A DNA stretch of 64,000 nt from a bacterium. Lineage in GTDB: Bacteria; Patescibacteriota; Minisyncoccia; Phycocordibacterales; UBA9973. The stretch is taken from the NCBI GenBank assembly GCA_037130655.1, contig JBAXSP010000003.1:68684-132683 (forward strand), given 5' to 3'. This document shows, piece after piece, positions 2,929 to 41,885 of the stretch; the first letter of the stretch is position 1; each line of letters begins with the position of its first letter. The position numbers were made by a program, and so were the translations under genes. The notes under the pieces were generated by a model that searched no databases, had not been told where the DNA came from, and was given only the letters and a program-made list of their open reading frames with translations.

Positions 2929-2977
2929 TCGTTTCTGGTAAAACGTTGCAAGACATCATCCTGATGTAAATAGGAAT

Positions 2978-3006
2978 AAAAAACCACCCGAAAGGGTGGT
3001 TTTTTA
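2978..3006 (+). terminator. Rho-independent terminator (CCACCC-GAAA-GGGTGG + T-run)
   Basis: Perfect 6-bp GC-rich stem, GAAA tetraloop and TTTTTT directly after the stop of the large ORF. Confidence 0.75.
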
Positions 3007-3030
3007 TATGGTTTTTGTTACAATGGCTAT

Positions 3031-4365
3031 ATGAAAAATCTTCGAAAAGTATTGATGATCGCGTTATTTGCAACAGCGTTTACTCCAGCAATTTATGCTG
3101 AGAATACACTAACTCCTTCTCAAAATGCCAAAACACTCTTTTTCAGAGGTTGTATAGCACTCGTTTCTGTATTGTTTTCGGTTCTGATGATCAAAAGTGC
3201 TTCATTTAGAAGTGAGGTAAAGGAGCGACTTGTTGTTGTATGGAAACATCCACTGGTTAAAATAACAACACTGTTATACGGAATTCTTTGTGTTAGTACA
3301 ATCTTTGCCTACCATCATTTGCTTGGTTTTTTTGGAGAAGCAGAACGAGATGAAGGTTTCCTCGGTCTTACCTTTTTCTATAGTCTTTTTTTGTACACAA
3401 TACTCTTGTTTCAAAAGAAGGATTGGTATGTTTATTTTGGAACAGCAATCGCAACACAGTTGTTTGTTTTTTCATCAGCAATACATCAATTTGCCAATGG
3501 AACACATCGTACTAATTCAATCGTAGGTAATCCGATTTATTTTGCAACATATGCACTTTGTCTACTGTGTATTAGTTTTGCAATATATTTTCAAGCAAAA
3601 AAAGAAGAATGGTACACTGTCAAAATAATCAGCATTATTTCTATTATTGTTGCTATACTAGAAATCTTTTTGAGTAACACCCGTGCACTCATGTTGGGTG
3701 TTGCGATAGCTGTTCCTGTTGTACTCAGTCTTTTGTTTGTTTATTCAGACACGGTGTTTTCATCTGCAAAAAAAGTATACGCCAAAAGAATCATTGTTGT
3801 GATATTTGCTGCGTTTGTGGTATTTGGGGCAATCTTTTTGTCGACACGTCAGGCAAAAATATGGACACACATACCGGGACTTGATCGTATTGCACAATCA
3901 AGCACCACGGACTCTTCAACCGTCTCTCGTCTTGTTTCTTGGAATATTGCTCTTCATTCAATCAATCCTGTTGAGGCGGGGATTGGCAGAACACTTTTTG
4001 GATATGGTTGGGATAACTATTTCTTTGCATGGCAAAAGTTTTATCAAACAGCATTGTTTGAATACGACACAGCAACATTTGATCGACCGCACAATAAATT
4101 ACTTGATATGTTGGTGATGAACGGAGTATTAGGATTCCTTGCGTATATGTTGTTTTGGTTTTTGTTTATAAAAATACTCGTCCGCTATGCAAAAAAAGAG
4201 CCACTATTTTCTATACTCTTTGTTTCTTGGGCGGTAGCATATTTTGTACAAAATCTTTTTGCGTTTGATAATATTATTACGTGGATTTTATTCTTTGCGA
4301 TCGTTGCATTTGTGACTAACGAAACGCTTGATGCTCAAAAAGAAGTGATAGTTAAAAAACAATAA
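3031..4365 (+). CDS. Wzy_C-family membrane protein (O-antigen ligase / polymerase / PglL-like O-oligosaccharyltransferase family), copy 1
   Basis: About 10 predicted TM segments. Periplasmic-loop motifs SRLVSWNIAL...P.EAGIGRTLFGYG and FDRPHNKLLDMLVMNGVLG match the Wzy_C signature R..W.A..P..G.G...HN..L..G. Extended -10 TGtTACAAT lies 6 nt upstream of the ATG. Confidence 0.75.
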   Translation: MKNLRKVLMIALFATAFTPAIYAENTLTPSQNAKTLFFRGCIALVSVLFSVLMIKSASFRSEVKERLVVVWKHPLVKITTLLYGILCVSTIFAYHHLLGFFGEAERDEGFLGLTFFYSLFLYTILLFQKKDWYVYFGTAIATQLFVFSSAIHQFANGTHRTNSIVGNPIYFATYALCLLCISFAIYFQAKKEEWYTVKIISIISIIVAILEIFLSNTRALMLGVAIAVPVVLSLLFVYSDTVFSSAKKVYAKRIIVVIFAAFVVFGAIFLSTRQAKIWTHIPGLDRIAQSSTTDSSTVSRLVSWNIALHSINPVEAGIGRTLFGYGWDNYFFAWQKFYQTALFEYDTATFDRPHNKLLDMLVMNGVLGFLAYMLFWFLFIKILVRYAKKEPLFSILFVSWAVAYFVQNLFAFDNIITWILFFAIVAFVTNETLDAQKEVIVKKQ

Positions 4366-4366: not shown

Positions 4367-5254
4367 ATGAAAAACCAAAAAAATACTAAAATAGCAGAAG
4401 AAAAAAACGGGGTAATGAGTATTGTATTTACTTTTATATCAATCTTTTTTTTTGTTGGTTTTATTTATTGGACAGCTGTTCCGTATATACAAATGGTTCA
4501 ATGGAAAAAAGGAATCGGTGCAATGCTTGCGGGAGATGATACAAAATTTCCAAATGATGACTTCATATATCGTCCGTACAATAATTCAATTCAATCAGGT
4601 ATTAGAATCGCTTCTTTCTCGAATGTTTTCAATCAGTATGTTCGTGGTGAAAGAACTAGTTTTACACCGCTATATGACATTGCTTTTAATCGTGAAAAAG
4701 AGTGGGTAGATGCACATCCGTATCGATATGATCATTTGCTCGCTATCGCCAAAGGATATGAGTACAAAGCAAATCTAACAGGTGATACCTCGTATTATCT
4801 ATTGGCAGATGAGTATTATCAAAAAGCACTGGCACTTTGTCCAGAACGACAAGATTTGCTGTATGCGTATTCGCAACACCTTTCAAATACTGGCAAAAAA
4901 CAAGAAGCGATTGATTTGCTTCAAAAAATGCGTAAACAAAATCCTGGTATTGCTCAAACAGGTTATTATTTGGGGACTGTCTATGCCGCAGGGGATAAAA
5001 CAGGATATGATACTGCGTTGACTTATCTAGAAGACTATTTTGCAACAGGTAATCCTATTGTAGATAAAACAGTTATTAAGACATTGTATGAACATTTCTT
5101 TGTTTATTATTATGACAAGAAGGATCTCGGTCGCTTTACTGTTGTCGCTCGAAGAATGATTATTGCAGATCCTTCACAAGCAGATGTGTACAAAAAAATA
5201 TCAGATTATATTGATACGAATAAAACAATGCCGTATCTTAATATTCACAACTAA
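4367..5254 (+). CDS. N-terminally membrane-anchored TPR-like protein, partner of Wzy_C copy 1
   Basis: N-terminal TM helix followed by a VPYIQMVQWKKG motif and a helical-repeat (TPR-like) C-terminal domain. Paralog of 19488-20102. Confidence 0.6.
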   Translation: MKNQKNTKIAEEKNGVMSIVFTFISIFFFVGFIYWTAVPYIQMVQWKKGIGAMLAGDDTKFPNDDFIYRPYNNSIQSGIRIASFSNVFNQYVRGERTSFTPLYDIAFNREKEWVDAHPYRYDHLLAIAKGYEYKANLTGDTSYYLLADEYYQKALALCPERQDLLYAYSQHLSNTGKKQEAIDLLQKMRKQNPGIAQTGYYLGTVYAAGDKTGYDTALTYLEDYFATGNPIVDKTVIKTLYEHFFVYYYDKKDLGRFTVVARRMIIADPSQADVYKKISDYIDTNKTMPYLNIHN

Positions 5255-5255: not shown

Positions 5256-6101
5256 ATGCTTATTGTACGATTGCAAGGAGGGTTAGGGAATCAACTATTT
5301 CAGTATGCTTTTGCTCGTGCGCTTTCATTGAAACAAAATAAATCAGTTTTTCTTGAAAAATCATTCAAACAACACAAGGTTTTTGGTATCACTCAAAGGG
5401 AGTATGCACTGGATGTTTTTGCTATAGAGGCACAAGTGTTCGAAGAAAATACTTTTCATAAAATAACAAGTGTTATAAAACGGGTTCTCCAAAAAATAGT
5501 TCATATAGAGTGGCGAGGGCTAGAAAAAAGTTTCGCATTCGATCAAAAAATGTTGACTATAAAAGACGGTTATTTTGATGGCTATTGGCAAAGTTATAAA
5601 TATTTTGAACATATAGAAAGTATCATTAAAAATGAACTTGTGTTGAAAGTTATTTCACCTGAAATAAAACAATTTGCTGATCAGATTGAAACAGAGAAAT
5701 CTTTGGCGATACATATTCGCCGAGGAGATTTTGTTAATAATAAAAAACATGAAGTTGTAAAAAATGATTATTATGAGAAAGCGATAAAAATAATCGAATC
5801 AACACATGCGGTAGAACATATCTATGTATTTTCAGATGATATTGCATGGTGTGAAGAACATCTTCATTTTGATTATCCAACAACTTTTGTACCGCTTGCG
5901 TATGAAGGAAAACACGGAGAAGGTCATCTTCATATGATGAGTAAGTGTCAGTATTTCATTATTCCAAATAGTACTTTTGCGTGGTGGGGGGCATGGCTTT
6001 CAAACAGAAAAGATAAAATTGTCATTACTCCAAAAATTTGGCGAAATGATATACTTATTCCACCAGACGATTTACTTCCACCAGATTGGGTTAAAATATA
6101 A
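5256..6101 (+). CDS. GT11-family glycosyltransferase (alpha-1,2-fucosyltransferase-like)
   Basis: GT11 motifs RLQGGLGNQLFQYA, HIRRGDF and IIPNSTFAWWGAWL. Start taken at the internal ATG at 5256, 1 nt after the upstream stop (the ORF-track start 5163 overlaps the upstream gene). Confidence 0.8.
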   Translation: MLIVRLQGGLGNQLFQYAFARALSLKQNKSVFLEKSFKQHKVFGITQREYALDVFAIEAQVFEENTFHKITSVIKRVLQKIVHIEWRGLEKSFAFDQKMLTIKDGYFDGYWQSYKYFEHIESIIKNELVLKVISPEIKQFADQIETEKSLAIHIRRGDFVNNKKHEVVKNDYYEKAIKIIESTHAVEHIYVFSDDIAWCEEHLHFDYPTTFVPLAYEGKHGEGHLHMMSKCQYFIIPNSTFAWWGAWLSNRKDKIVITPKIWRNDILIPPDDLLPPDWVKI

Positions 6102-6104: not shown

Positions 6105-6923
6105 ATGCAAAAACCTCGTATTACAATTATTCTACCTGCTTACAACGGTGCTCGTTGGATTGAAACGGCCATCAAAAGTGCACAAAATCAAACATTTACT
6201 GATTTTGAATTACTCGTTTTTAACGATTGTTCAAAAGATAATACCGAAGAAATCGTACTTCGATTGGCCGAACAAGACAATCGGATTATTTATACAAAGA
6301 ATGAAAAGAATCTTGGCGTTCAGAGAACTCGTAATATTGCGCTCCAAAAAGCTCAGGGTGAATATATAGCTGAAATTGACCAAGACGATGAGTGGATCGA
6401 CAAGGATAAATTACAAAAACAACTTTCGTTTCTAGAAAACAACAAAGACTATGTACTTGTTGGGACCGGTGCAATCATGATTGATGAGAAAGGGAATGAA
6501 ATAGCTCGATATTTGATGCTAGAAACTGATAATCAGATCAAGAATAAACTCTTGCGTGCAAACTGCTTCATTCACTCAAGTGTGATGTATCGCAAAGATA
6601 TCGTAATTGAAATTGGCGGTTATACAATAGAAAAAATGTCTGAAGATCATGACCTTTGGCTTCGCCTCGGAAGACACGGGAAATTTATGAATTTTCCAAC
6701 GTATTCAGTTAAATACCTTTTTACACCGAGTGGATATAACTCTCAAGACAAAATTCTTCGATTGAAACAAAATTTACTTTTTACCAAAGAACATAAAGAT
6801 TTTTACCCAAACTATGTTTATTCAGTTATCTATGGTTGGGCAAAAATTTTATTTACACCAATTTTCAATCTTTTGCCGACAAGGCTAAAAGGATTCTTTC
6901 TTTGGTTGCACAAAAAGATCTAG
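6105..6923 (+). CDS. GT2-family glycosyltransferase
   Basis: ITIILPAYNGARWIETAIKSAQNQTFTDFELLVFNDCSKDNT and a DQDDEW (DxD-like) motif, i.e. GT-A fold. Confidence 0.8.
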   Translation: MQKPRITIILPAYNGARWIETAIKSAQNQTFTDFELLVFNDCSKDNTEEIVLRLAEQDNRIIYTKNEKNLGVQRTRNIALQKAQGEYIAEIDQDDEWIDKDKLQKQLSFLENNKDYVLVGTGAIMIDEKGNEIARYLMLETDNQIKNKLLRANCFIHSSVMYRKDIVIEIGGYTIEKMSEDHDLWLRLGRHGKFMNFPTYSVKYLFTPSGYNSQDKILRLKQNLLFTKEHKDFYPNYVYSVIYGWAKILFTPIFNLLPTRLKGFFLWLHKKI

Positions 6924-7901
6924 TTATTTTACCGTGCCTAATTTAATATATTCTTCGCACGTATTTTTAATATGTTCTTCAATAGAAAGTATGTTTTTGA
7001 AACCAATTGTTTTTTCAATTTTTTCTTGTGACAAAATACTTTGATTGGTCAAAGCTTTGAGTCTTGCGAAGGTCAAAGGGTTTTTCTTTCTTAAAATAAA
7101 ACATACAACTAGTAGTACGGTACTTATTCCAAAAGCTATAAAATAGGGAATCGTGTATGTTTTTCTTGTGATTTTTGGTGTGGCATTTTTGACAATCTCA
7201 TCCATTTTTTTGTATGCAACTGCATTGCTTAGGATATAGATATTACCAAACGAGCTATCGGTTTTTCCGAGTAGTTCTAATGCGCGAATCACTTCGTTTA
7301 TATGGACGATATTATAATATCCAGTACCAATATTTTTATATAAACCACTTCTCATACTTTGGATTAGCTGGAGAAAACTACCACCTTCTTTGTTGTTTCC
7401 GGTGCCAAATATAGTACTAGGACGCAAAATATGGGCCTTTAGACCCTGTTTGATTGCTTGGACGACAACTTGCTCGGCTCTGTATTTTGATCGGCCGTAA
7501 GCATTGTGTGGATGTGGAATGGTTTCTTCTGTAACAATCTTGTCTTTTGTTTGTCCGGTAATTCCGGCACTTGAAAGATATATGAGTGTACAGTTATTTT
7601 TCATTGCTTGAGCTACAATATTTTTTGTCCCGAGTACATTCACTCGTTCAAGTTCTTCTGTATTGTAAATTGATCCCGCGCAATGATAGATAATACGCAC
7701 ATCATTTGGGATTTCAAAAGAATCGGTAATATCAGCTATAATAAAACTCACCCGATCGTTATTTTCAAATAGGGGAGATTTTTTTCTAGATAAAATATAT
7801 ACAAAACAACCTTCGTCCAATAAAGCTGTTACGAGTTTTGCTCCAACATATCCGGTACCACCCGTAACAAGGATTTTTTTGTTTTCCGAAATATGTTCCA
7901 T
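6924..7901 (-). CDS. NAD-dependent epimerase/dehydratase family protein with C-terminal TM segment
   Basis: Rossmann motif LVTGGTGYVGAKLV. Short-chain dehydrogenase (SDR) catalytic YxxxK motif (YGRSK). Hydrophobic C-terminal helix. Confidence 0.75.
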   Translation of the reverse strand: MEHISENKKILVTGGTGYVGAKLVTALLDEGCFVYILSRKKSPLFENNDRVSFIIADITDSFEIPNDVRIIYHCAGSIYNTEELERVNVLGTKNIVAQAMKNNCTLIYLSSAGITGQTKDKIVTEETIPHPHNAYGRSKYRAEQVVVQAIKQGLKAHILRPSTIFGTGNNKEGGSFLQLIQSMRSGLYKNIGTGYYNIVHINEVIRALELLGKTDSSFGNIYILSNAVAYKKMDEIVKNATPKITRKTYTIPYFIAFGISTVLLVVCFILRKKNPLTFARLKALTNQSILSQEKIEKTIGFKNILSIEEHIKNTCEEYIKLGTVK

Positions 7902-7904
7902 ATA

Positions 7905-8573
7905 TTAGTGAGATTTCTTTGTAAAACTTTTGATTTTTCTTTTTAGCCAGTGTTCCATTTTCATTTCTTTTTCAAATACACGAGGATTGATAAGATTTAA
8001 TATTCCTTTTCGGTTTTTGTTGAAGAAATTATAGGTATAAATATTTTCAGTATTATATGTCGATGTAAATAGTTTTTGACTACCTTTTTGAATAATCGCA
8101 CAACCTTCATCGGCATCGATTGTGTAGATTTGCACATCAGGATTTTCTGTTCGCAATTTTAAGATCGCTTTCCAGACATCGCCGTGCCAAACACTCGAAG
8201 CTCGTTCGCGTCGCTGAGTGATTTCTCTGGTTGGATTACAGTCATGGACAACAATTGTTCCGCCATCATTGAGCCATTCCAATCCATTGATAATATCTTT
8301 GTATGCTTGTTCGAAAAGGTGTAACCCATCGATAAAAATGATGTCATATTTCATTTGTATATGACTCGCAAAAAATTCATCAGAAGTCATCTGAAATGTC
8401 GTATCAACCGCTGGGTCAACACCGTGTTTTGTCTCTATGTTGATACTTGTGTGACTGTAACCTGGTTGAGCAGGAGTATTGACACCTATTTCTAAATAGG
8501 TTTTGTAGTTATTTTTTTTGATAAGCGTATTGATAATTTCTGTGCGAGTCAGTGTTTTTAGTAGTTGTCTCAT
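7905..8573 (-). CDS. Class I SAM-dependent methyltransferase (putative sugar or glycan O-methyltransferase)
   Basis: YLEIGVNTP and IIFIDGLH motifs and the TIVVHDCNP acidic patch are typical of CmcI/Methyltransf_24-like folds. It sits inside the glycan cluster. Confidence 0.55.
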   Translation of the reverse strand: MRQLLKTLTRTEIINTLIKKNNYKTYLEIGVNTPAQPGYSHTSINIETKHGVDPAVDTTFQMTSDEFFASHIQMKYDIIFIDGLHLFEQAYKDIINGLEWLNDGGTIVVHDCNPTREITQRRERASSVWHGDVWKAILKLRTENPDVQIYTIDADEGCAIIQKGSQKLFTSTYNTENIYTYNFFNKNRKGILNLINPRVFEKEMKMEHWLKRKIKSFTKKSH

Positions 8574-10348
8574 TTGAATAATTCTTTGTATTTATCTTTA
8601 TTCTCCTTAATATACCGTGGTAGACCCTTTTCATCAATATGATAAGCAAAGTTTCTTCCAGCGACATCTTGATTATTTTGTAATCGTTCAGTTATCTGGT
8701 TTTTTGTTGAATCATTGTTTAGTTCTTGGTGTGAGAAGGACTCGATTTTTTCTTTGACCCGATTCTCGCCACCTTGATAGGTGAAATGCCAGCCACCATT
8801 GTTTACAAAAGTATACGGTGTCTTTCTCTTTGTGCGAAGATGATTGAGACAGTTGTTTTTGATGTTTTTGTACTTTGTCGCCAAAGTGCCAGTCCAGGCT
8901 TCATTCGATTTGTTGTTCAAATAATAGCAATAGACTGCTTGTCTGAATTTATAGATGTCATCTTTTTGGTAATCAATTACTATTTCTGGATTCCAGATTT
9001 CATCAAGGTCAGAGACAAAACAGAAATCATTATCAGAAAGATTTGTTAATGCGTGCTTCACAGATTCCTTTTCATAGAAATCACGCAAGAAATGATTCAT
9101 TCCTTTTGGAATATTATCTGAAGTTAGTGTTTGTTTCAAAATTGTTTTTTCAAGTTGAGATATACTGCCTTCATTTAGTCGTTCTTGTGCGTCAGTAAAA
9201 TCTTGCAACGGATGCTCTATGACATAGTGAATAATTTTGTGTTCAAATTGTTTGAAACGTTCTTTGTTTTTCTCATAAAACAATTCTTTTGGTTTACCTG
9301 AGTGGGTGAGTGTGGATTCAACGATAACGAAATAATCAACATATGGATCAAGAATGTTAAGTCGGATATCAAGTAATTCAAGTTCGTTGAAGAAATTAAA
9401 AATATCATAGATTTTTATCGTTTTACGATAATTGGCAATCTCTGCTATTTTTTTCTTTGAAGGATTCTTATAGGTTTTAGATAGGAGTGCATTTTTTTTG
9501 ATTAAAAGAATGTTTTTGATTTTGCGATATATTTTTTGAATCAAAATTTTGGTATTCATAAAGATTTTTTTGTATAAGATATTTGCAAGAATAGAAGCAA
9601 ATAAGAAATATAACTTTCTACTGATCGGTTCGGGTTTTGTTTCTGTATTTATAAAATCTTCATCAAGTGGTACGAGAATTTTTGGGTTGAACTCGAAATT
9701 GCTCATCATAAGCGTAAACATAGTTCGTTCAATCATGTGTGTTTCTGCTGGTTCCTGACAATGAGACATAAAGAGTCGTAGATTTTGATAGACTACTTTC
9801 GGTACTTTCAAAATACGTTCTTTTGGTGCAATGAAATCTCCTCCAGGAGAAAAACGGACATAGAGTGGAATTACCGGATCTTTGTATAAAAAACGAATGA
9901 AGTCATTGTGGTTGTGGAAATATTTATGTTTCCAGTATTTGAAATACCAACTACTGTTGATTTCACATAAACCGCCATCTGGAGACAGGTATGCGACAGG
10001 GAATATAGTGTCGTATGTTTTCCAGTCTTCAAGTGGTGTATACCAAGTATTGTTCATTACCTTGTCGAATGTTTCTTTTCGAACATGACGTGGAAAAGAC
10101 CAGCCTTTGGCAAAGATAATACAATCAGGAAGGTTGTCGTAATTGTCGATGATATATGTAAAATATTCATATGAATTATATCCGTTGTTTGAGCCAGGTA
10201 ATACTTTTTGAAAATCAATTGTTTCTGGTATTGCCACTTTGTCACTGCGTTTATTATAAATAACATAGTTGTCTGTATATTCAGGCACCCACGAAAGATC
10301 ATTATTGAAATTTGATATAACCAAGAAGTTTTTTTGGATTTTTTTCAT
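8570..10348 (-). CDS. Two-domain glycosyltransferase: unknown N-terminal domain plus GT17-like C-terminal domain
   Basis: The C-terminal IYDIFNFFNELELLDIRLNILDPYVDYFVIVES matches the bacterial GT17 (MGAT3-like) signature. The N-terminal ~240 aa has no motif I recognise. A K-rich hydrophobic linker separates the two. Confidence 0.55.
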   Translation of the reverse strand: MKKIQKNFLVISNFNNDLSWVPEYTDNYVIYNKRSDKVAIPETIDFQKVLPGSNNGYNSYEYFTYIIDNYDNLPDCIIFAKGWSFPRHVRKETFDKVMNNTWYTPLEDWKTYDTIFPVAYLSPDGGLCEINSSWYFKYWKHKYFHNHNDFIRFLYKDPVIPLYVRFSPGGDFIAPKERILKVPKVVYQNLRLFMSHCQEPAETHMIERTMFTLMMSNFEFNPKILVPLDEDFINTETKPEPISRKLYFLFASILANILYKKIFMNTKILIQKIYRKIKNILLIKKNALLSKTYKNPSKKKIAEIANYRKTIKIYDIFNFFNELELLDIRLNILDPYVDYFVIVESTLTHSGKPKELFYEKNKERFKQFEHKIIHYVIEHPLQDFTDAQERLNEGSISQLEKTILKQTLTSDNIPKGMNHFLRDFYEKESVKHALTNLSDNDFCFVSDLDEIWNPEIVIDYQKDDIYKFRQAVYCYYLNNKSNEAWTGTLATKYKNIKNNCLNHLRTKRKTPYTFVNNGGWHFTYQGGENRVKEKIESFSHQELNNDSTKNQITERLQNNQDVAGRNFAYHIDEKGLPRYIKENKDKYKELFK

Positions 10349-10355
10349 ACTAGTT

Positions 10356-11342
10356 TTACAGTGCTTGTCGGATTATTTTGTATAATTTTCGAACCTTGCG
10401 TAACATATTTCTTTGAAATAGAAACAATCGTTTTTTTTCATAGATTACTGGTGTTGTATCCCTTTCTCCTCGTTTATAGTCTTTCATATCAGCGATACAT
10501 TCTTCGTATGACTGTAGTTGAAAAGTTCGATCCATATATTTCCATCCACTGGTAATATTGTATCCGCAACCCCAATAACCGTCTGAGGTATTCCATTGTG
10601 ACCAGTATTTCGGTGCAATGCAGTATTTCAAGTTTTCATTCAACCAAGCAGGGAACCAAGCAAAACTAGAATTTGAAAGAATTAAATAGTGAGCATTTTT
10701 TACAACGACATAATCTTTTGCAATATTAAAATGAAGCACATCAAAAGCAGGGAAGAACTTTTTGGCAGTGATCACATCATCAGTAATGACAATAAAGCGA
10801 AAGTCAGGATTGATTTTGCGCATATGAGTGACTGCGTTGTCCCAATACTCTTGCGGAAGAAATACGTGAGGAATACCAACATATTCACCACCACGAAAAT
10901 TGATTACGCAAATGTGTTCATTTGCGTAATCAAAACATTCATACGTATCTTTTACTTTCAACCACTCACGAATTTCATCTTTGTGTGACAAGATGTATTG
11001 CTCGTCTTGCATGATACCGTCGATTTTGGTGTTGTCAGCTACGTTCATCAAGTCTGCATCGTAAGTACGAATATCAACACCAGTTTTTGGATGGAGGAGT
11101 TGTTTTTCTCGGTAATAATGAGTTATTCCTTCAGGTAGTGTGATAGCAGGTCCTCCTTCAGGACCAGTACCACCAATTACTTGTTCGCCGAAATCTAGAC
11201 TCATGAAATCCAAACATTTGAATTTTTGCGGATTCATGATGCCGTATTTATACCCTTTATTTTTGGCAATTACTCTTGTCACCACATAGCACCACAGTTG
11301 GTTTCCAAGTCCTTGTCCGTTGTATATTTCGGTGACAATCAT
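10356..11342 (-). CDS. GT11-like glycosyltransferase, second copy
   Basis: N-terminal GQGLGNQLW and C-terminal LILSNSSFAWFPAWL mirror GT11 motifs I and III of ORF 5256-6101. Confidence 0.6.
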   Translation of the reverse strand: MIVTEIYNGQGLGNQLWCYVVTRVIAKNKGYKYGIMNPQKFKCLDFMSLDFGEQVIGGTGPEGGPAITLPEGITHYYREKQLLHPKTGVDIRTYDADLMNVADNTKIDGIMQDEQYILSHKDEIREWLKVKDTYECFDYANEHICVINFRGGEYVGIPHVFLPQEYWDNAVTHMRKINPDFRFIVITDDVITAKKFFPAFDVLHFNIAKDYVVVKNAHYLILSNSSFAWFPAWLNENLKYCIAPKYWSQWNTSDGYWGCGYNITSGWKYMDRTFQLQSYEECIADMKDYKRGERDTTPVIYEKKRLFLFQRNMLRKVRKLYKIIRQAL

Positions 11343-11345
11343 AAT

Positions 11346-13040
11346 TTATATTTTAATGTGTAATTTTCTAAGAATCTTTTTTAGTGGCCAGAAAATCTGA
11401 GGAAGAACTAATTTACTTCCATGGAAACCAAACGGTTTCCAAACAGATTCTTTACAATCGGTTTCGTGAGAAAATCGTGCAGCTACATCTACTGGAGCAA
11501 ATTTAATACCTGCATCTTCTAAAGTCTTGCGGTGATACACACAAATCAAACCATCTTCGTGGAAAAATCCAGTACCATTATCAGTAAATGGTAAATTAAG
11601 TTCATTGAGGATGTTCAACAGCTTTTTACTTCGAAGGGTAAAACCTCCATTACCAACACGCACATTCACACCTTCGTTGGTGAAGTGAACATTTGGTGCC
11701 CAGGGTGCGCCAATGTAATCATATTTCAAAAAGTCTGGATCCCATTTTTGCGGACGGAGAATATACCCATCATTTTGTACAAGCATTACATAATCTGTTT
11801 GTATATAATCAGCAAGTTTGTACGCAACAAAATGGTTATATCCTTTGTAGTCGAGTTTTTCGATATTGATAACCTTGATACCTAGATCATCGAGATTTAT
11901 TTTTTCATGCGTAATCAAAATCGCTTCTGCGAAATCAATTCCTTTCATACTTTCGCGAAGTGCATGAATGGTGTCATTGATTCGAGTGCAAGCAACTGCA
12001 ACAAGGGTGACAGTAGGTAATTGTATTTTTTGATTAGTTGTTTTCCAAAAACTATAAATATTTTTGTGGATTTCGTACTTCATATTTTTTACTTGGCGTT
12101 CAGGTTGTTTCTCTGCCCAGTCAAACATCTTACGAATCGTTTTTTCGATATTTGTATCATCAGAAAAGGCTAATAAATTTTTTGCTTTGTCATGATTACA
12201 ATAAGCATCCTTGACTTCAAGGCGAGGTTCTTTGTGTTCGATAGTTGTCTTATGTCCTTTTTCTGCGCCAATTTTTTGTACAAGCTCAGCGATATCTTTG
12301 AGTTTAAATTCTTGGTCTGCTCCAATATTAAAAATCTCACCATCAAAACCATCCATCAATTTTTCGAATGGCTCCATATAAAAAGAGATATCAGAAAAAG
12401 CTCGAGTTTGTTCGCCGTCACCGTAAATAAGTATTGGTTCACCTGCGAGTGTTCGGCGTATCCAAATACCGATAACATTTCGATATCGGTCCCAAATATT
12501 TTGATTTACCCCAATAACGTTGTGTGGTCGGATGATGGTGTATCTTAGTCCGAATTGATCGTGCGCTTGTTTTATATCCATTTCGATGGCGTATTTTGCA
12601 ATACCATATGGATCTGCTGGTTTCGGTAACATTTCTTCGGTGAATGGAGGAGTGCTATGTCCGTATACTGCCATTGATGAAGTAAAGATGAGTTTTTTGA
12701 CATCATGCACAACACAATTATTGATAACATTGGCTGAACAGATGAGATTGTTGGTGTAATTGAAATTTCGAATAAACGGAGAAAGTCCTTCAGCTGCATA
12801 TGCAGCAAAGTGATACACATACTCAGGTTTATGTTTTGCGAAAATGCTGGCTATTTTTTCAGCATCAAAAAGATCTACTTGATAAAAAGTACCTGCATCA
12901 ATGATTCTACTGTCCACAAAATCTTTGTATCCACCAAAGAGACTATCGATACCGATAACCTCATGACCTTTGTCGAGCAGATGTTTTGAAAAATGACTCC
13001 CAAGTAGACCTGCAACACCTGTAACTAAAACTTTACTCAT
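11346..13040 (-). CDS. Fusion protein: NAD-dependent sugar epimerase/dehydratase (N-terminal) plus uncharacterised ~240-aa C-terminal domain
   Basis: N-terminal VLVTGVAGLLGSHFSKHLL Rossmann motif and SDR YxxxK. The C-terminal half (from ~aa 330) has no catalytic motif I recognise. Confidence 0.7.
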   Translation of the reverse strand: MSKVLVTGVAGLLGSHFSKHLLDKGHEVIGIDSLFGGYKDFVDSRIIDAGTFYQVDLFDAEKIASIFAKHKPEYVYHFAAYAAEGLSPFIRNFNYTNNLICSANVINNCVVHDVKKLIFTSSMAVYGHSTPPFTEEMLPKPADPYGIAKYAIEMDIKQAHDQFGLRYTIIRPHNVIGVNQNIWDRYRNVIGIWIRRTLAGEPILIYGDGEQTRAFSDISFYMEPFEKLMDGFDGEIFNIGADQEFKLKDIAELVQKIGAEKGHKTTIEHKEPRLEVKDAYCNHDKAKNLLAFSDDTNIEKTIRKMFDWAEKQPERQVKNMKYEIHKNIYSFWKTTNQKIQLPTVTLVAVACTRINDTIHALRESMKGIDFAEAILITHEKINLDDLGIKVINIEKLDYKGYNHFVAYKLADYIQTDYVMLVQNDGYILRPQKWDPDFLKYDYIGAPWAPNVHFTNEGVNVRVGNGGFTLRSKKLLNILNELNLPFTDNGTGFFHEDGLICVYHRKTLEDAGIKFAPVDVAARFSHETDCKESVWKPFGFHGSKLVLPQIFWPLKKILRKLHIKI

Positions 13041-13816
13041 ATAATTGATCGAAATTTTCTAATAAGTTTTTTTATATAAAACATTCCAACGACGCGTAAT
13101 CTGTAAGGAAAAGAGATGAAGGTTTTACCGTATTTTCGAAGACAGTAACGATATTCTTCATAGCGTATCTGTGTCGTTGCTTCGGTATTTGTTACCTGAT
13201 GCTCTCCTAATCCAATGGATACTGTTATTTCGTTTAGAATTTTAAGTTTACCAAATCTATCATAACATTTTCTATAGTAATCACAATCCATTAACCATGC
13301 TAAATTGTTGTCAAATAAGGGGATATTTTGATTTTTTAGCGTTAAAACAGAAGGGGCTCCAATGGTATTTTTACCTAGATATATATTTGAATTATAGGTG
13401 GGGTAGTGTGTTTTGGAAAAAGATGTGCCGTTGGTAGTGTGATTACAAGCAGTAACCAACCAGTGATCTTTTTCTGTGTCGAAGTTTTTTACGATTTTTT
13501 CTAAAGAATCATTTCCATATAAAAAATCATCTTGGAACAATATTTTAATTAGTGTGCCAGTGGCTTTTGTCATCGCGTTGTTTATATTGGCAGATGAACT
13601 TCCAAGGTGTTCAGTGTTTTTATGATAATGAATCTGTAATTGGTTTCGATATGTTTCGCAAAATTCCTGTATTTTTGTATCTTTTGAATGATCAGAAATG
13701 ACAACATCAAAATCTTTGAATGATTGTTTCAGTAGTGCTTCAAAACTTCGTTGCAAGAAAGACGTTCCTTCTCCATGCATTTCATATGTGGGGATGCAGA
13801 TGCTTATTTTGGCCAT
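13037..13816 (-). CDS. GT2-family glycosyltransferase
   Basis: ISICIPTYEMHGEGTSFLQRSFEALLKQSFKDFDVVISDHS is a GT-A N-terminal signature. Confidence 0.75.
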   Translation of the reverse strand: MAKISICIPTYEMHGEGTSFLQRSFEALLKQSFKDFDVVISDHSKDTKIQEFCETYRNQLQIHYHKNTEHLGSSSANINNAMTKATGTLIKILFQDDFLYGNDSLEKIVKNFDTEKDHWLVTACNHTTNGTSFSKTHYPTYNSNIYLGKNTIGAPSVLTLKNQNIPLFDNNLAWLMDCDYYRKCYDRFGKLKILNEITVSIGLGEHQVTNTEATTQIRYEEYRYCLRKYGKTFISFPYRLRVVGMFYIKKLIRKFRSII

Positions 13817-15252
13817 AGTGTTGTTTGTAAATCTTTTAGAATAGGTTCTTTAAGAAGTAATAATGTTGATAGATAGCAGATCAGGGATATCAATATAATT
13901 ACTACCACCGGTAATTTCAGTGCTTGCAATAGCAAAATTAGAATACTCATGAGTATTGTTGAAAACAATATCTTTTTTATAGTAAGTGGAATACTGTGTT
14001 CAGTACTCATCACTTTCCATGATAATAAAGTGATAACGATTGTTGACAATAGTGTTGCTACTGCTGATCCTGTTGCGCCGAACGTAGGAATTAGTAAAGC
14101 ATTAAGAATAATATTGATACCAACACCAGTAATATAAATGGGTGCTAGTACGCGTTGTTTGTTGTATGAAAAAATTGCATTTGATAGTGAAATTAATGGG
14201 AATGAAAAAATAAGCATAAACATCAGCGTGTACATAATAGGGACCGCTTCAATATATCCAGCGCCGAAAATTAATAAAATTAATTCTTTTGATAACAACA
14301 TACCACCAAAAGCGATTGGTAATCCAACAAGCATTGTCATTGAGATTGTTTTTCCAAGGGTAAAAGAAAAATGATTTTTATCCGTGTGTGCAAGTCGTGA
14401 CAGAATAGGGAAAGTTGCGGTGGCAATCATTGATGGAATGATCAAAATAAATTGCTGGATTCGTTGAACCGATGCATACAAGCCAATTTCATCAGCATTT
14501 TTCCATAAACCAAGCATGTAAATATCAGTGTTTCCGAGGATTGTTCCAATCAAAGCAACAAATGCAAATGGCCATGTTATTTGCATGATTTTTTTTGTAA
14601 GACGTATATTAATTGGTACCCAAAAATCTTTGATATATTTTTTAAGCATTGCAATAACTGCAATTGTTCCAATGGCACTGCCGATTGCGTACGCAATCGC
14701 TATTGATTGTGCGGTCGGTTTATTTTTGATCAGCAGTATTCCTATTATCAATATCAATCCATTAACAATTGTTTTAATAAACATTTCCCACTCCATCTTT
14801 TCATAAGCACGGTTGAGGGAGAATCCAGTTTCTCGTATTGCGTCAAAAAACATAACAACCGCAATCAATGGAAATAACACATTAGCTTCAGGGATATGTG
14901 AAATAGTTGGGCCAATAATAACAATTAAAAACCCACTTATAATAAGTAGTATTGTTTTTATAAAAAGTACTGTAGCAATAAATGATTGATGATCTTCTTT
15001 TTTTTGAATTATTTCTCGAGTCAGTAACCCGCCAAGCCCAATATCAGAAAATATCATAACTAGTCCGCCGATTGATATTGCATATGAAAAAACTCCCCAA
15101 CCAGCACTGCCTAATAATCTGGCTGCATAAATAATCAATCCCATTTTCAAAAGACGTCCTGTTGCTTCACTTGCAATTAACCAAAAAGTATTTTTGGTGA
15201 CAGTTTGTTTTGAACTTGTATTATGAAAAAGAAATTTTTTTATTCTCTGCAT
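13804..15252 (-). CDS. Wzx-type oligosaccharide flippase (MOP/polysaccharide biosynthesis protein family)
   Basis: 482 aa, ~12-14 TM helices, typical Wzx hydrophobic pattern. Location within the glycan cluster. Confidence 0.7.
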   Translation of the reverse strand: MQRIKKFLFHNTSSKQTVTKNTFWLIASEATGRLLKMGLIIYAARLLGSAGWGVFSYAISIGGLVMIFSDIGLGGLLTREIIQKKEDHQSFIATVLFIKTILLIISGFLIVIIGPTISHIPEANVLFPLIAVVMFFDAIRETGFSLNRAYEKMEWEMFIKTIVNGLILIIGILLIKNKPTAQSIAIAYAIGSAIGTIAVIAMLKKYIKDFWVPINIRLTKKIMQITWPFAFVALIGTILGNTDIYMLGLWKNADEIGLYASVQRIQQFILIIPSMIATATFPILSRLAHTDKNHFSFTLGKTISMTMLVGLPIAFGGMLLSKELILLIFGAGYIEAVPIMYTLMFMLIFSFPLISLSNAIFSYNKQRVLAPIYITGVGINIILNALLIPTFGATGSAVATLLSTIVITLLSWKVMSTEHSIPLTIKKILFSTILMSILILLLQALKLPVVVIILISLICYLSTLLLLKEPILKDLQTTLWPK

Positions 15253-15258
15253 AGATAA

Positions 15259-16554
15259 TTAATGAGTGAAAATAATTTGAATTGTTTTGATGATAATTCC
15301 AAGATCGATAAAGAGCGTGTGATTTTTGATATAGAACAAATCGTATTCGAATTTTTCACGAGAGTCCATTATTGAACGAGCATAACGGAATTTGATTTGT
15401 GCCCAACCGGTAAACCCTGGTTTGACGGTATGTCGAAGAAAATAATAGGGGATTTCTTTTTCGAGTCCTTCAACAAATTCAGGTCGTTCCGGTCGTGGTC
15501 CGACAAGTGTAATATCACCACGTAAAATATTTATCATCTGAGGTATTTCATCGATATGAGTTTTTCGAATTATTTTACCTACTTTCGTAATACGATTATC
15601 ATTTTGCGATGCCCATTGCGCACCTGTATTTTCTGCTGATCCGTCTGCGGAAAGTACAATCATGCTACGAAATTTGTATATTGTAAAAAGGTTCTTTTGT
15701 TTGCCTACACGAGTTTGTTTTAGGAATATTTGTTTTCTGTCGTTTATAAAAATGGCAATAGCTGTAATGATTGTAATAGGTAGTGTGATAAGTATGACAG
15801 AGGAAGCAAAAACAATATCGATTAATCGTCTGATAGTTTTTTCAAGAATATTTTCGCGTTGTTCCAATATTTTTATTGCAAGACCATCATCTATCAAAGA
15901 AACAGGGAGCTTAGACAAAATCATTTGAAATGCTTTTTTGATATCGAGATATTGATATGACGATTGCGAAAGTTGCATCAAGTCAGCGGTGTGAATAGTT
16001 TGTATGTAGACAATCGTATCTATTTTTTCTGATGATTGTAGTAATGCATCAAAATCAGTAAACGTTCCTTTGTAGGCATATCCAATGTGCGGATTTTGCT
16101 TGATATTTTCAATAAGGATTTTTGATTCGGGTGTTTCTCCAATGAAGGCAATGTTGTTTTTGAAATTTTTAGCAAAAACGTAATAGAACAAACTTCTCCA
16201 GAGAAATACCAATCCTGCAAAGAGTGCTTGTGTAATCAACAGGTTTGTTTTGGGTGCGATTTGGAATGAAAGAAAGTAAAACAACGTAATACCAGCAAGG
16301 GTGCTAGTCCCAAGTGCCAAAAGAAACTGTCTGAGATTAGTGAAATTTGGTTTGAGTGACGTTGCTTCGTATACATTGAAGATATAGAAAATCACAAAAA
16401 TAAGTCCACCCCAAATACTAAATGGTACAAGGTGTGGTTGCACCATTTGCGGTGCATCATTTATTCCAAAGCGAATAATCAGCATCAAATATCCAGCACC
16501 ACAGAGCATTAGTGCATCACCGAGAAAGAGAAGTGTTTTACGCCAATTTTTCAT
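15259..16554 (-). CDS. Polyprenyl-phosphate glycosylphosphotransferase (WbaP/CpsE-type initiating sugar transferase)
   Basis: C-terminal bacterial sugar transferase domain: KQTRVGKQKNLFTIYKFRSM...DEIPQMINILRGDITLVGPRPERPEF. N-terminal TM bundle. Confidence 0.85.
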   Translation of the reverse strand: MKNWRKTLLFLGDALMLCGAGYLMLIIRFGINDAPQMVQPHLVPFSIWGGLIFVIFYIFNVYEATSLKPNFTNLRQFLLALGTSTLAGITLFYFLSFQIAPKTNLLITQALFAGLVFLWRSLFYYVFAKNFKNNIAFIGETPESKILIENIKQNPHIGYAYKGTFTDFDALLQSSEKIDTIVYIQTIHTADLMQLSQSSYQYLDIKKAFQMILSKLPVSLIDDGLAIKILEQRENILEKTIRRLIDIVFASSVILITLPITIITAIAIFINDRKQIFLKQTRVGKQKNLFTIYKFRSMIVLSADGSAENTGAQWASQNDNRITKVGKIIRKTHIDEIPQMINILRGDITLVGPRPERPEFVEGLEKEIPYYFLRHTVKPGFTGWAQIKFRYARSIMDSREKFEYDLFYIKNHTLFIDLGIIIKTIQIIFTH

Positions 16555-16603
16555 ATGGCTATAGTATACCGTAGATAACTGCGAATGTAGAGTTGCGTAA
16601 AAT

Positions 16604-17632
16604 TTGACGATTTGTATACTTTACGGTGAGATGTTTACTTTTCTCAAGAACAACCGAAGAGCAATAGTGTATACAGTCGCCCTGCTTGGTATCGGCTTTG
16701 TTGTTGGTTATGTTGTCAAACCATCACAAATAGTTTCATCAAAAGCAATCAGAGAAAACACCAATAAGTATACTTTTATACACCCGTTACTCGCAGTAAA
16801 TCGTCAGGATGATACACCTTCTCCGCAATTTAATGATTTGTACAACAGTGTAGATAAGTTGATTGATCAAAAAAAGAAAACAACTTCATTGATTGATTCA
16901 TCGGTGTATTTTATTAGTTACGATAAAAATAACGGGTCTTTTGCGATTAATCAAGATCAAAAATATTCTCCGGCAAGTTTGCTCAAGGTGGTGATTATGA
17001 TTGCATATCTCAAAAAATCAGAAACGTATCAAAATATTTTAAATCAAAAAATTGTCTACACAGCCACTATCGAGCAGACATTGGAAAAGGTTCCTTTTGA
17101 AACACCAAGTAATTTGATGATAGGTCAGTCATATTCTTTTTCTGAGTTGATTAATCGAATGATCGTTGATTCTGATAATGGCGCCAAAAATATTCTCTTG
17201 TCACACATTGAAGATGAGTATCTCAATCAGGTATATAGTGATTTGAATTTGAAAGGCCCAAGTGATAATACTGACTACACTATTTCAGTCAAAGATTATG
17301 CGCTATTTTTGCGAGTACTATTTAATGCCACCTATTTGAGTGATGTTAATTCTGAAAAAGCACTCGCTATATTAAGTAAGGCAACTTTCGATAAAGGGTT
17401 GTCGATAGGGGTTCCGTCGGGTACGGTTATTGCGCATAAATTTGGCGAACATATCAACGGCAAAAACGATAGTATTGATTCTATTGAGTTGCATGATTGT
17501 GGTATTGTGTATTATCCAAAAAATCCATATCTTGTTTGCGTGATGACTCGAGGAAAAGATATTAAGGTGTTGCAAAATACAATCGGAGAAATTTCAAAAA
17601 CAATATATGATTTTGTTTCAAAACAAAATTAA
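16604..17632 (+). CDS. Membrane-anchored serine hydrolase, class A beta-lactamase-like / PBP-like
   Basis: N-terminal TM segment. SxxK (SLLK) and SDN motifs. Degenerate KTG-like motif (HKFG). Confidence 0.6.
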   Translation: MTICILYGEMFTFLKNNRRAIVYTVALLGIGFVVGYVVKPSQIVSSKAIRENTNKYTFIHPLLAVNRQDDTPSPQFNDLYNSVDKLIDQKKKTTSLIDSSVYFISYDKNNGSFAINQDQKYSPASLLKVVIMIAYLKKSETYQNILNQKIVYTATIEQTLEKVPFETPSNLMIGQSYSFSELINRMIVDSDNGAKNILLSHIEDEYLNQVYSDLNLKGPSDNTDYTISVKDYALFLRVLFNATYLSDVNSEKALAILSKATFDKGLSIGVPSGTVIAHKFGEHINGKNDSIDSIELHDCGIVYYPKNPYLVCVMTRGKDIKVLQNTIGEISKTIYDFVSKQN

Positions 17633-17692
17633 AGCATCACTGTTTACGGGAAATCGTGGTATATATTAGGTGTACCATAAATAATCATTTCT

Positions 17693-18157
17693 ATGTCAAA
17701 TAATAAAAAAATACTTAGTACTATTGCACTCATTGTCATTATTATACTTCTTGCTTTTTTTGTTTGGAAACAAACAAAACAAACAGAGACTTCTATTGAT
17801 ACAAATATATCAATAGAATCAACAGAGGATGTTGATGTTGCAACAACAACCACTTCAGTTAAACCAGTAACAATAAGTTATCAAAAGGCACTTGAAATAT
17901 ATAAGGATAAGCGCATCCAGCTAGGCGCTACAACTGTCTGTACTGCTACACCAAATAATGTGACTTACAAAAACGGGACAAGTATCATGATAGACAATCG
18001 TTCAACAATTGCTCGAACAATCAAAATCGGAAGCACCTATACCGTCAAACCATATGGTTTCAAAATTATCAAACTGACAAGTAAAACACTTCCAGTTAAA
18101 TGGTATATGGATTGTAATAAACAGCAAAATGTTGCAACAATCTTGCTTCAAAAATAA
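17693..18157 (+). CDS. Hypothetical membrane-anchored protein
   Basis: ORF with N-terminal TM helix and no recognisable domain. Confidence 0.45.
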   Translation: MSNNKKILSTIALIVIIILLAFFVWKQTKQTETSIDTNISIESTEDVDVATTTTSVKPVTISYQKALEIYKDKRIQLGATTVCTATPNNVTYKNGTSIMIDNRSTIARTIKIGSTYTVKPYGFKIIKLTSKTLPVKWYMDCNKQQNVATILLQK

Positions 18158-18166: not shown

Positions 18167-18201
18167 CAAAAACCCGAAAGGGTTTTTGTTTTTGTTTTTT
18201 T
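18167..18201 (+). terminator. Rho-independent terminator (AAAAACCC-GAAA-GGGTTTTT + T-run)
   Basis: Hairpin with T-tract. Near-identical in layout to the terminator at 2978. Confidence 0.7.
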
Positions 18202-18217
18202 AACGTACAATAGCTAT

Positions 18218-19498: not shown

Positions 19499-20102
19499 TA
19501 TTTTACACATACAAATAATAGCTATTCTTGTAATGGTTCTTGCGGGTGTTGTATTTGTCTGTGGTTCACTCATTCCATATATTCAAATGAATCAATACCA
19601 TTCTATTTTGGTAAACGGAGGAAATTTTGAAAATATTTTAGAAAAAGATGCTATTTTTAGTCCGCACACAACTGCAACTGATATGGTCTGTACACAAATA
19701 ATTGGAAATGTTTCGATTCCAATCACAAAGACATTCAATGAGGTTACTCCGGAAATAAAAGCATATGTACCTTTTTTACAAAATGTATTGTTACGTTGTA
19801 GCGATACTCTTACAAAAAGCACTGATCCAGTAGATAGATTTTTGATTAGTACTATTTATATGTACCTTGGAAATATTACAAATGAAAAAGTTTATTTTGA
19901 CAAAAGTGATGCTTTGATAAAAAGTATTTTTGATCAATCTCCTAAACGTCAACCGTTTGTTGAGTTTGCTGGAGTAAATTCATTTTTCAAAAGAGATTTT
20001 GTGAATGCAAAAAAACAGTTTACAGAAGCATTGAAAACAAATCCGAATTCTCGACAGGCGACATACTATCTAAATACCATCAATAGTTTCGGTATAAAAT
20101 AA
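19488..20102 (+). CDS. Membrane-anchored TPR-like partner protein, copy 2 (paralog of 4367-5254)
   Basis: N-terminal TM helix plus IPYIQMNQYH (cf. VPYIQMVQWK) and a C-terminal helical-repeat region. Confidence 0.6.
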   Translation: MKNNILHIQIIAILVMVLAGVVFVCGSLIPYIQMNQYHSILVNGGNFENILEKDAIFSPHTTATDMVCTQIIGNVSIPITKTFNEVTPEIKAYVPFLQNVLLRCSDTLTKSTDPVDRFLISTIYMYLGNITNEKVYFDKSDALIKSIFDQSPKRQPFVEFAGVNSFFKRDFVNAKKQFTEALKTNPNSRQATYYLNTINSFGIK

Positions 20103-20128
20103 GTTTTCATATGGTATAATAAAACCAT

Positions 20129-20218
20129 ATGAAAGGAGGAATTGCTTCAGTTTTATTGAAATATGTCGCACTGATTGGTGTAGGTGTGTTGTTGTGGTGG
20201 ATAGTCACACTGAAGTAA
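20129..20218 (+). CDS. 29-aa hydrophobic small ORF (MKGGIASVLLKYVALIGVGVLLWWIVTLK)
   Basis: TATAAT at 20115-20120 lies 8 nt upstream of the ATG. A 13-bp perfect hairpin follows immediately. Too short for the ORF track. Confidence 0.35.
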   Translation: MKGGIASVLLKYVALIGVGVLLWWIVTLK

Positions 20219-20229
20219 TTATTGCCAGC

Positions 20230-20275
20230 AAAGGGCCGATTCTACTCCGTAGAATCGGCCCTTGTCATTTTCCTA
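20230..20275 (+). terminator. Strong hairpin GGGCCGATTCTAC-TCCG-GTAGAATCGGCCC plus T-rich tail (terminator and/or part of rplJ leader)
   Basis: Perfect 13-bp inverted repeat followed by TTGTCATTTTCC. Confidence 0.55.
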
Positions 20276-23469: not shown

Positions 23470-27046
<3,577 letters not shown>

Positions 27047-27171: not shown

Positions 27172-27280
<109 letters not shown>

Positions 27281-29377: not shown

Positions 29378-29379
29378 TA

Positions 29380-41880: not shown

Positions 41881-41885
41881 TAATG

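Follow-up and report, generated by a model that had tools for sequence, protein, structure and literature searches.

What is the small protein that accompanies each of two Wzy_C enzymes in this locus: an accessory factor of a new kind, or a part of the enzyme itself? The DNA in question is a stretch of 64,000 nucleotides (the window) from a bacterium of the Patescibacteriota (Minisyncoccia; Phycocordibacterales; UBA9973), namely positions 68,684 to 132,683 of the forward strand of contig JBAXSP010000003.1, GenBank assembly GCA_037130655.1. Two gene pairs in it each encode a polytopic Wzy_C protein and, next to it, a membrane-anchored protein with a TPR-like domain. A first-pass annotation had taken this co-duplicated partner, together with its enzyme and promoter, for an arrangement not yet described. 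Our analysis favours another answer. Each pair is probably (at about 0.6 by our estimate) a two-subunit form, arisen by gene fission, of a Wzy_C-TM-TPR glycan transferase (TM, transmembrane), which would act on a flipped lipid-linked glycan, pair 1 transferring to the protein encoded just upstream.

The gene pairs and their fused relatives

The four genes, designated W1 and T1 (pair 1) and W2 and T2 (pair 2), are as follows.

3031-4365, + strand: W1, predicted catalytic subunit, polytopic, 444 aa (open reading frame (ORF) listing, Pfam)
4367-5254, + strand: T1, 295 aa, with a cytoplasmic Lys-rich tail, one TM helix, a PYIQM motif and an extracytoplasmic TPR-like domain
18218-19498, + strand: W2, predicted catalytic subunit, 426 aa (Pfam Wzy_C, E 7.8e-15)
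19488-20102, + strand: T2, 204 aa, with a TM helix, PYIQM and a TPR-like domain shorter than that of T1

Both W proteins scored above the gathering score of Pfam Wzy_C (PF04932; 31.7 bits), W1 with 49.8 and W2 with 55.4 bits. They are paralogues (31% identity across 433 aa, E 9e-61), and T1 and T2 are likewise homologous to each other (24% identity, E 8e-9). The two paralogous pairs of the first-pass annotation were thus found in the ORF listing where it had placed them; the loop motifs that it had listed for the enzymes are, as written, approximate in their spacing. Each partner has a single N-terminal TM helix, immediately followed by the PYIQM motif, and a helical, TPR-like C-terminal part. 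In Pfam, T1 matched TPR_2 (24.0 bits) and TPR_14 (22.8 bits), both slightly below the gathering scores, and T2 gave weak TPR matches only; with repeats by profile or by fold as the test, both count as TPR repeat proteins. Among the NCBIfam models none was matched by W1 or W2, and the partners gave merely weak, generic TPR similarities, to the polysaccharide-export proteins BcsC, PgaA and PrsT. At the W1/T1 junction, TAAtATG, stop and restart lie 1 nt apart, as they do at the junction between T1 and the following GT11 gene, and the W2 and T2 genes overlap by 11 nt. The TAAtATG junction of pair 1 and the overlap of pair 2 point to translational coupling of both pairs.

In homology searches, W1 found 66 proteins and W2 found 83. 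Most of these carry both Wzy_C and TPR Pfam domains in one chain of 650-800 aa, a length found in about 105 of the 145 family matches. They are named O-antigen ligase family or TPR repeat proteins in the databases and come from Wolfebacteria, Colwellbacteria, Nomurabacteria, Zambryskibacteria, Kaiserbacteria and Paceibacterota; the single-chain protein measures 680-780 aa in most Patescibacteria. W1 and W2 match the N-terminal 440 aa or so of the fused proteins at 25-38% identity, the best non-orthologous match of W2 being the fused protein P0033 (38%). The partners match the remainder. T1 aligned by BLAST to residues 439-734 of the fused protein P0013 (734 aa; 56% identity, E 5e-116), the N-terminal part of which is 58% identical to W1, and over 20 further fused homologues likewise matched T1 in their C-terminal 200-290 aa. 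T2 aligned, again by BLAST, to residues 483-663 of P0033 (E 4e-8). Because both partners align to the C-terminal part of fused homologues, the partner is the split-off C-terminal TM-TPR module, with the break in the cytoplasmic linker, and not a new accessory factor. The full collinear architecture of Wzy_C domain, extra TM helix and TPR domain is found in the sum of the W and T products, not in one polypeptide.

To see how the partner occurs elsewhere, a partner profile was run over a library of 1.84 billion representative proteins, clustered at 50% identity, and gave 77 matches at E <= 1e-30. The best 150 matches included 86 stand-alone proteins (<=380 aa) and 25 of fused size; among the fused-size matches listed, the profile falls in the C-terminal part, mostly at about 440-735. 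Two signatures, the turn P-[YHF]-x-Q-M behind the TM helix and P-x-[RK]-Q within the TPR region, are kept by stand-alone and fused forms alike. Single-chain proteins such as P0035 (Candidatus Wolfebacteria), P0094 (Zambryskibacteria) and P0082 (Nomurabacteria) are homologous to the pairs over their whole length. Such Patescibacteria proteins share PYxQM and PxRQ with the pairs and likewise lie in glycan clusters, where a locus at times holds two copies and has a PG_binding_1 protein close by; the window differs from them in having two coupled genes, the break falling in the cytoplasmic linker ahead of the last TM helix. The fused form is the majority architecture of the family and probably the ancestral one.

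Could the split be an artefact, a fused gene interrupted by a frameshift or nonsense mutation, whose second half has no separate function? The 1-nt distance between stop and restart in pair 1, and the continuous ORF of the 58%-identical relative P0013, would fit such a view. Both halves are intact, however, and the partners have their own conserved ATG and a Lys-rich N-terminus. Moreover, in all related loci examined an unfused Wzy_C gene is directly followed by a T gene, which answers in the affirmative the co-occurrence check proposed with the first-pass annotation. Among relatives of pair 1 and its partner family, Wzy_C is 34-60% identical to W1 where measured; the W2 orthologues of two loci (L003 and L004; 79-80% identity) are likewise unfused, with 204-aa partners and the same 11-nt overlap. 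Since eight or more loci of different assemblies, with orthologues at 34-80% identity, thus keep the split, and 86 stand-alone partner clusters stand among the best 150 profile matches, we reject a sequencing or frameshift artefact, or a decaying gene, as extremely improbable.

In a neighbour-joining tree, built without support values and used for nesting only, the unfused proteins are nested in a family whose deeper branches are all fused. The tree does not serve to date the duplication of W1 and W2. The fused P0013 falls inside the W1 clade, and one related locus (L005) carries a split copy and a fused copy side by side, 45% identical to each other. Judged from this mixture, fission and fusion have occurred repeatedly, which argues that split and fused forms work alike. 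The locus nearest to the window among species-representative genomes (L001/L007) is labelled Candidatus Saccharibacteria. A contig scan with the partner profile found one locus only, on the same contig as L001; the degenerate patterns used were too specific to show distribution.

The claim that the arrangement had not been described did not hold, given the predominance of fused proteins and an earlier example of a split. A 2010 review of the S-layer glycome pointed out that WsfB and PglL are Wzy_C oligosaccharyltransferases (OTases) with C-terminal TPR, and that WsaB, which lacks TPR, adjoins the small TPR protein WsaA (168 aa) in the S-layer glycosylation locus of Geobacillus stearothermophilus (PMC2943079). 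As in the window, WsaA/WsaB and WsfB (Paenibacillus alvei) place a Wzy_C transferase in a lipid-carrier-dependent glycan cluster adjoining a surface-protein gene, with the TPR C-terminal in WsfB and in a small adjacent ORF in WsaA/WsaB; the likeness observed is one of architecture and context. There are differences as well: wsaA lies upstream of wsaB, whereas the window partner lies downstream and is TM-anchored, and the host of the window is a Patescibacterium whose large protein is only putatively S-layer. The pairs are therefore not a new kind of system; as read from their homologues, they are a split of a common but unstudied Wzy_C-TPR family, and an experimentally characterised member of either form was not found. 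The literature found by searches on Saccharibacteria O-antigen ligase and on S-layer glycosylation in the candidate phyla radiation (CPR) contained nothing specific to this family. Two features appear not to be described in the literature searched: first, a split form that has a TM-anchored partner and is widespread (86 clusters or more at 50% identity), and second, in Patescibacteria, a conserved trio with a giant surface protein, to which we now turn.

Surface protein, glycan cluster and the function of the pairs

The gene upstream of pair 1 is cut by the start of the window.

4-2928, + strand: 3' part of the gene for a large Ser/Thr-rich surface protein, candidate acceptor glycoprotein

Ser and Thr make up 30.9% of this protein, against 12.6% in the other proteins of the window, and charged residues 7%. 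Full-length orthologues, with 69% (L001), 60% (L006), 48% (L010) and 43% (L005) identity, have a signal peptide, a PG_binding_1 domain and a linker of the TTTTPTTPTTT type; a partial orthologue is 37% identical. In pair 1 and its relatives, this gene invariably comes right before the split Wzy_C, giving a trio in the order large PG_binding_1 Ser/Thr-rich protein, split Wzy_C, TM-TPR partner. The trio occurs in at least six loci (the window, the Saccharibacteria-labelled L001, L005, L006, L010 and one further locus) and in part in L011; L002 carries the same partner protein as L001. In L006 (1607-4888) the surface protein is 60% identical to the window copy and the adjacent Wzy_C only about 37%, and this stronger conservation of the surface protein would suit a major structural protein of the surface. 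The conserved trio points to protein O-glycosylation, a role that we infer from gene order. A locus with fused enzymes, L009, is built similarly, with a PG_binding_1 protein, a fused Wzy_C, a PMT-family protein and a fused Wzy_C-TPR, followed by methyltransferases and glycosyltransferases.

Two further observations concern these proteins. The surface protein has a conserved C-terminal SWTD-AGGG...YGYP/YNFP motif. In L009 (3193-9175), the protein between the two fused Wzy_C-TPR genes belongs by its domains (PF02366/PF16192) to the protein O-mannosyltransferase family and is, on this assignment, a second kind of protein O-glycosylation enzyme at such loci.

Between the two pairs lies a glycan-synthesis cluster, assigned by Pfam.

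5256-6101, + strand: GT11 gene, in the same tightly packed operon as pair 1
6105-6923, + strand: GT2 gene, in the same operon
6924-16554, - strand: convergent glycan-synthesis operon
15259-16554, - strand: Bac_transf phosphoglycosyl transferase (PGT), first gene of the convergent operon
13804-15252, - strand: Wzx-type flippase (Polysacc_synt/Wzx), second gene of the convergent operon

The flippase gene is followed by genes for GT2, epimerase+DUF5672, GT11-like, GT17/DUF3431, methyltransferase and epimerase proteins. The components of a lipid-linked donor pathway, an initiating PGT and a flippase, are therefore encoded near both pairs. The window ORFs scanned include neither a Wzz/PCP (Wzz/GNVR-type) gene nor a further candidate polymerase; LCP-type ligase, anchor-synthesis, lpx and outer-membrane genes were not seen either in the 64-kb window. 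The involvement in a surface glycan or in protein O-glycosylation that the first-pass annotation had put forward remains plausible.

Structural models bear on the question whether the two products of a pair belong together. For the fused P0013, AlphaFold2 with a 57-sequence alignment gave a predicted local distance difference test score (pLDDT) of 94.8 and a predicted TM-score (pTM) of 0.91; a pseudo-fusion of W2 and T2 gave 93.3 and 0.91, with low confidence at the artificial junction only. Values so high over the whole chain imply that in the models the TM-TPR module packs in a defined way against the catalytic domain, and the pseudo-fusion supports a physical W2:T2 complex, whose formation may be expected for the native subunits. 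The enzymes show a WaaL-like polytopic fold with a large extracytoplasmic loop; WaaL is the best structural match, and it is by fold comparison only that the family is linked to it. The residues conserved across the unfused members include R106, E108, G109, R160, R218, R286, R300, D351 and H354 (W1 numbering), with R218, R300, D351 and H354 invariant in 26 of them; in W2 numbering, a set of 51 sequences keeps R216, R291, R343 and H345 almost without exception. Outer-loop Arg and His residues are catalytic in WaaL and PglL, and, judged from order and spacing only, the conserved Arg and His of the family may be equivalent to those of WaaL. The solved WaaL of Cupriavidus metallidurans (PDB 7TPG/7TPJ) shares about 10% identity with the window Wzy_C proteins, with no sequence-level match; it lacks the 13th TM helix and the TPR domain. 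Its acceptor is lipid A-core. Patescibacteria are generally regarded as monoderm, and a monoderm CPR cell is not expected to make lipid A-core.

From these results the following mechanism may be proposed, in which the glycan donor and the acceptor are the most tentative elements. The Bac_transf enzyme would prime undecaprenyl phosphate, on which some eight glycosyltransferases and modifying enzymes would build an undecaprenyl-PP-oligosaccharide, probably containing fucose; Wzx would then flip this lipid-linked glycan, and the Wzy_C/TPR enzymes would use it on the outer face. The larger subunit would be a WaaL-fold polytopic enzyme with the conserved Arg and His in its large extracytoplasmic loop. 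The smaller one would supply what is the 13th TM helix of the single-chain forms, the P-Y-x-Q-M turn at the outer membrane face and an external TPR solenoid. The split products would reassemble into the single-chain architecture, a W:T heterodimer thus being the equivalent of the single-chain enzyme. Pair 1, which is locked next to the gene of the surface protein and for that reason likely to be its OTase, would act as an O-oligosaccharyltransferase with the upstream Ser/Thr-rich peptidoglycan-binding protein as the most likely acceptor, the TPR domain of T1 binding and presenting it. Pair 2 would be a repeat-unit polymerase, or a transferase to a second acceptor.

Several results weigh against this reading. 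The Pfam TPR matches of the partners fall short of the gathering scores, and sequence profiles of the family reach no NCBIfam model. The unfused Wzy_C profile found no match up to E 10 among all PDB chains, and the only solved structure of the fold that the PDB searches produced is that of WaaL, a lipid ligase and not a protein OTase. The docking of the subunits was judged from the pTM of covalently joined chains, with an underlying alignment dominated by natural fusions. Finally, paralogues sharing a locus mostly resemble one another more than they do the copies of other lineages, which argues against two ancient, fixed classes of polymerase and transferase.

A more far-reaching version would make both pairs two-subunit protein O-oligosaccharyltransferases with a detachable TPR subunit that selects the acceptor, pair 1 for the upstream peptidoglycan-anchored, S-layer-like coat protein and pair 2, with its shorter TPR, for another; we regard it as possible but tentative. 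If true, CPR bacteria would have their first defined surface-glycoprotein system, and the O-OTase would be the first of heterodimeric make-up in bacteria. Alternatively, both pairs may act on polysaccharide, one or both of them as Wzy-type polymerases or as ligases of a cell-wall glycopolymer to a lipid or peptidoglycan anchor, with the TPR protein handling the growing glycan as a scaffold or a Wzz-like length regulator. The flippase and the PGT, the lack of any other polymerase candidate or Wzz/PCP among the scanned ORFs, the lipid ligase WaaL as best structural match, the weak NCBIfam similarities to polysaccharide-export TPR proteins and a bitopic partner whose helical outer domain is loosely co-polymerase-like would all agree with it. 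The comparison with Wzy and Wzz goes some way, in that there too a membrane enzyme of the Wzy_C superfamily works in a Wzx-dependent pathway with a helical partner on the outer face. Wzz, however, has two TM helices and a different fold, is oligomeric and never forms the C-terminal domain of Wzy; in most homologues of the window pairs, by contrast, TPR module and enzyme are joined 1:1 in cis. Nor would a role in polysaccharide synthesis explain the tight synteny with one Ser/Thr-rich surface protein, and the ligase variant meets no LCP-type ligase or anchor-synthesis gene in the window. On balance we consider it credible but less likely.

A third substrate is offered by the pilins of the window.

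45660-56647: type IV pilus operon, encoding PilM, a PilO-like protein, PilB ATPase, a response regulator, PilT, PilC, pilin (53970-54497), prepilin peptidase and a second N_methyl protein (56015-56647)

With a complete operon and two N_methyl pilin genes at hand, the pairs might be pilin O-oligosaccharyltransferases of the TfpO/PglL kind, known pilin OTases carrying Wzy_C and TfpW a periplasmic TPR. More than 30 kb separate the pilin genes from either pair, though, and the conserved neighbour in related loci is the large surface protein and not a pilin, which makes this quite unlikely. The known enzymes are instructive all the same for the preferred reading, that of split transferases with pair 1 serving its upstream protein. 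PglL/TfpO (PilO) has a Wzy_C domain like the window proteins and transfers en bloc from a flipped undecaprenyl-PP-glycan, and tfpO adjoins its substrate gene, as pair 1 adjoins the surface-protein gene. PglL and TfpO are single polypeptides, however, with the Wzy_C domain as the link and no close homology demonstrated, and the TfpO acceptor is a pilin, whereas the putative acceptor in the window is a peptidoglycan-binding protein of at least 1000 aa. In Pseudomonas aeruginosa Pa5196/PA7, the gene of the membrane OTase TfpW, which has a periplasmic TPR, directly follows its substrate gene pilA (bioRxiv 10.1101/2020.04.19.049825). TfpW, a polytopic glycosyltransferase with extracytoplasmic TPR, resembles the window enzymes in design, not by descent. 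Eukaryotic TMTC-type GT-C enzymes are polytopic with an extracytoplasmic TPR domain as well. Both TfpW and TMTC belong to a catalytic family different from that of the window, GT-C with a DDX motif, ArnT/Emb-like.

Bacterial diversity consists in large part of Patescibacteria (CPR), whose episymbiotic lifestyle is mediated by the cell surface. To our knowledge, the glycobiology of their envelope is essentially uncharacterised. One subfamily in locked synteny with a highly conserved giant Ser/Thr-rich, peptidoglycan-binding surface protein provides a concrete candidate, open to testing, for a system that glycosylates surface proteins in CPR bacteria. The split form, moreover, amounts to a natural experiment: the TPR module can be expressed, swapped or omitted apart from the catalytic subunit, and such a separate module would reveal the role of the TPR domain in transferases of the Wzy_C family.

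Elements upstream of the pairs

Was the promoter duplicated along with the enzyme, as the first-pass annotation proposed? The near-identical upstream regions that it described, with hairpin, TACAAT box and start, are indeed there at both pairs, and a related element heads a third gene.

2976-3007, + strand: intrinsic-terminator-like hairpin 3' of the surface-protein gene, with a 14-bp stem, GAAA loop and T-run
3019-3039, + strand: 21-mer at the W1 start, with -10 box TACAAT, 6-nt spacer GGCTAT and then ATGAAAAAT, putative leaderless promoter
16546-16566, - strand: third copy of the 21-mer, TACTATAGCCATATGAAAAAT, with 2 mismatches, at the start of the Bac_transf gene
18167-18188, + strand: intrinsic-terminator-like hairpin upstream of pair 2, with GAAA loop and T-run
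18206-18226, + strand: 21-mer TACAATAGCTATATGAAAAAT at the W2 start, putative leaderless promoter

The two hairpins have a CCCGAAAGGG core, and the one at 2976-3007 is kept as the same element in L001. A similar hairpin precedes the pilin gene, the hairpin type being generic. Downstream of the hairpin, both pairs have TACAAT(G/A)GCTAT followed by ATGAAAAAT. Three matches to the 21-mer with up to 3 mismatches were found against 0.01 expected, whereas a bare TACAAT-N6-ATG was not above chance (2 found, 1.07 expected). With its third copy at the head of the PGT operon, the 21-mer is common to all three transcription units of the glycan locus, and the encoded proteins start alike (MKNWRK in the PGT, MKNWIT in W2, MKNLRK in W1). 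The PGT gene is not a paralogue of W1 or W2. In orthologous loci, W2 and PGT genes keep the -10 box, the spacing of 6-7 nt and a ATGAAAAA(T/C)TGG start (in L003 and L004 the PGT retains TATACT, 6-7 nt and then ATGAAAAA), while the sequence of the spacer differs.

No Shine-Dalgarno sequence was found at any gene start in the 64-kb window, that of W1 included. At many operon-first genes a TAnAAT box precedes the ATG by 6-9 nt (for example at 27466, 29577, 34629, 39296 on the minus strand, and 62323), several window proteins start with MKN or MKK, and internal genes are joined via TAAtATG, ATGA-type or 11-nt overlaps. This pattern suggests that leaderless mRNAs are the rule in this genome, and the W1, W2 and PGT units would then be transcribed leaderless as well. 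Identity by descent of the promoters is unlikely because neutral upstream DNA would keep none at 31% protein identity between the enzymes. The similarity of the 21-mers is more readily seen as functional and generic, the design of a leaderless promoter with an MKN start in this genome, and hardly as inherited. Since the motif also stands at the head of the PGT gene, which is no paralogue, and orthologues do not keep the spacer, we rejected the 21-mer as a relic of a duplicated promoter, and a co-duplication of enzyme and promoter is accordingly unlikely.

Two intergenic regions showed further elements. In L001 (4566-4697) the terminator and a TACAATGGC box are conserved relative to the window, and an insert of about 120 nt, flanked by an 11-nt inverted repeat (cccgttagagg ... 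cctctaacggg), separates the -10 box from the Wzy_C start codon; this insert could be a small mobile element or a structured leader. At 20100-20260, after T2, a GGTATAAT box is overlapped by an inverted repeat (CATATGGT...ACCATATG); next come AGGAGG, the sole Shine-Dalgarno-like motif noticed near these genes, and a GC-rich hairpin terminator ahead of rplJ.

Other features of the window

Relative to the orthologous loci L003 and L004, the window has two extra genes between the PGT gene and W2 (16604-18157).

16604-17632: class-A beta-lactamase-like / Beta-lactamase2 protein
17693-18157: 154-aa membrane-anchored protein, with a weak match to the sortase-dependent surface-protein family NF053819 (E 0.002)

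A cluster of carrier-lipid recycling genes, for FtsW/RodA, a PAP2 phosphatase and the undecaprenyl-pyrophosphate phosphatase UppP/BacA, occupies 28250-30835, at a distance of about 8 kb from the glycan locus. The 23S rRNA gene (23475-27043, + strand) measures 3569 nt against a model of 2925 positions, with about 640 nt of insertions, and a 250-aa ORF without a Pfam match lies inside it on the opposite strand (24703-25455, -). A 5S gene follows at 27172-27278, with no 16S gene adjacent. Two divergent tRNA-Ser genes are located at 41885-41972 (- strand) and 42041-42128 (+ strand); of the anticodons assigned by ARAGORN, one is the unusual ACT and the other GCT.

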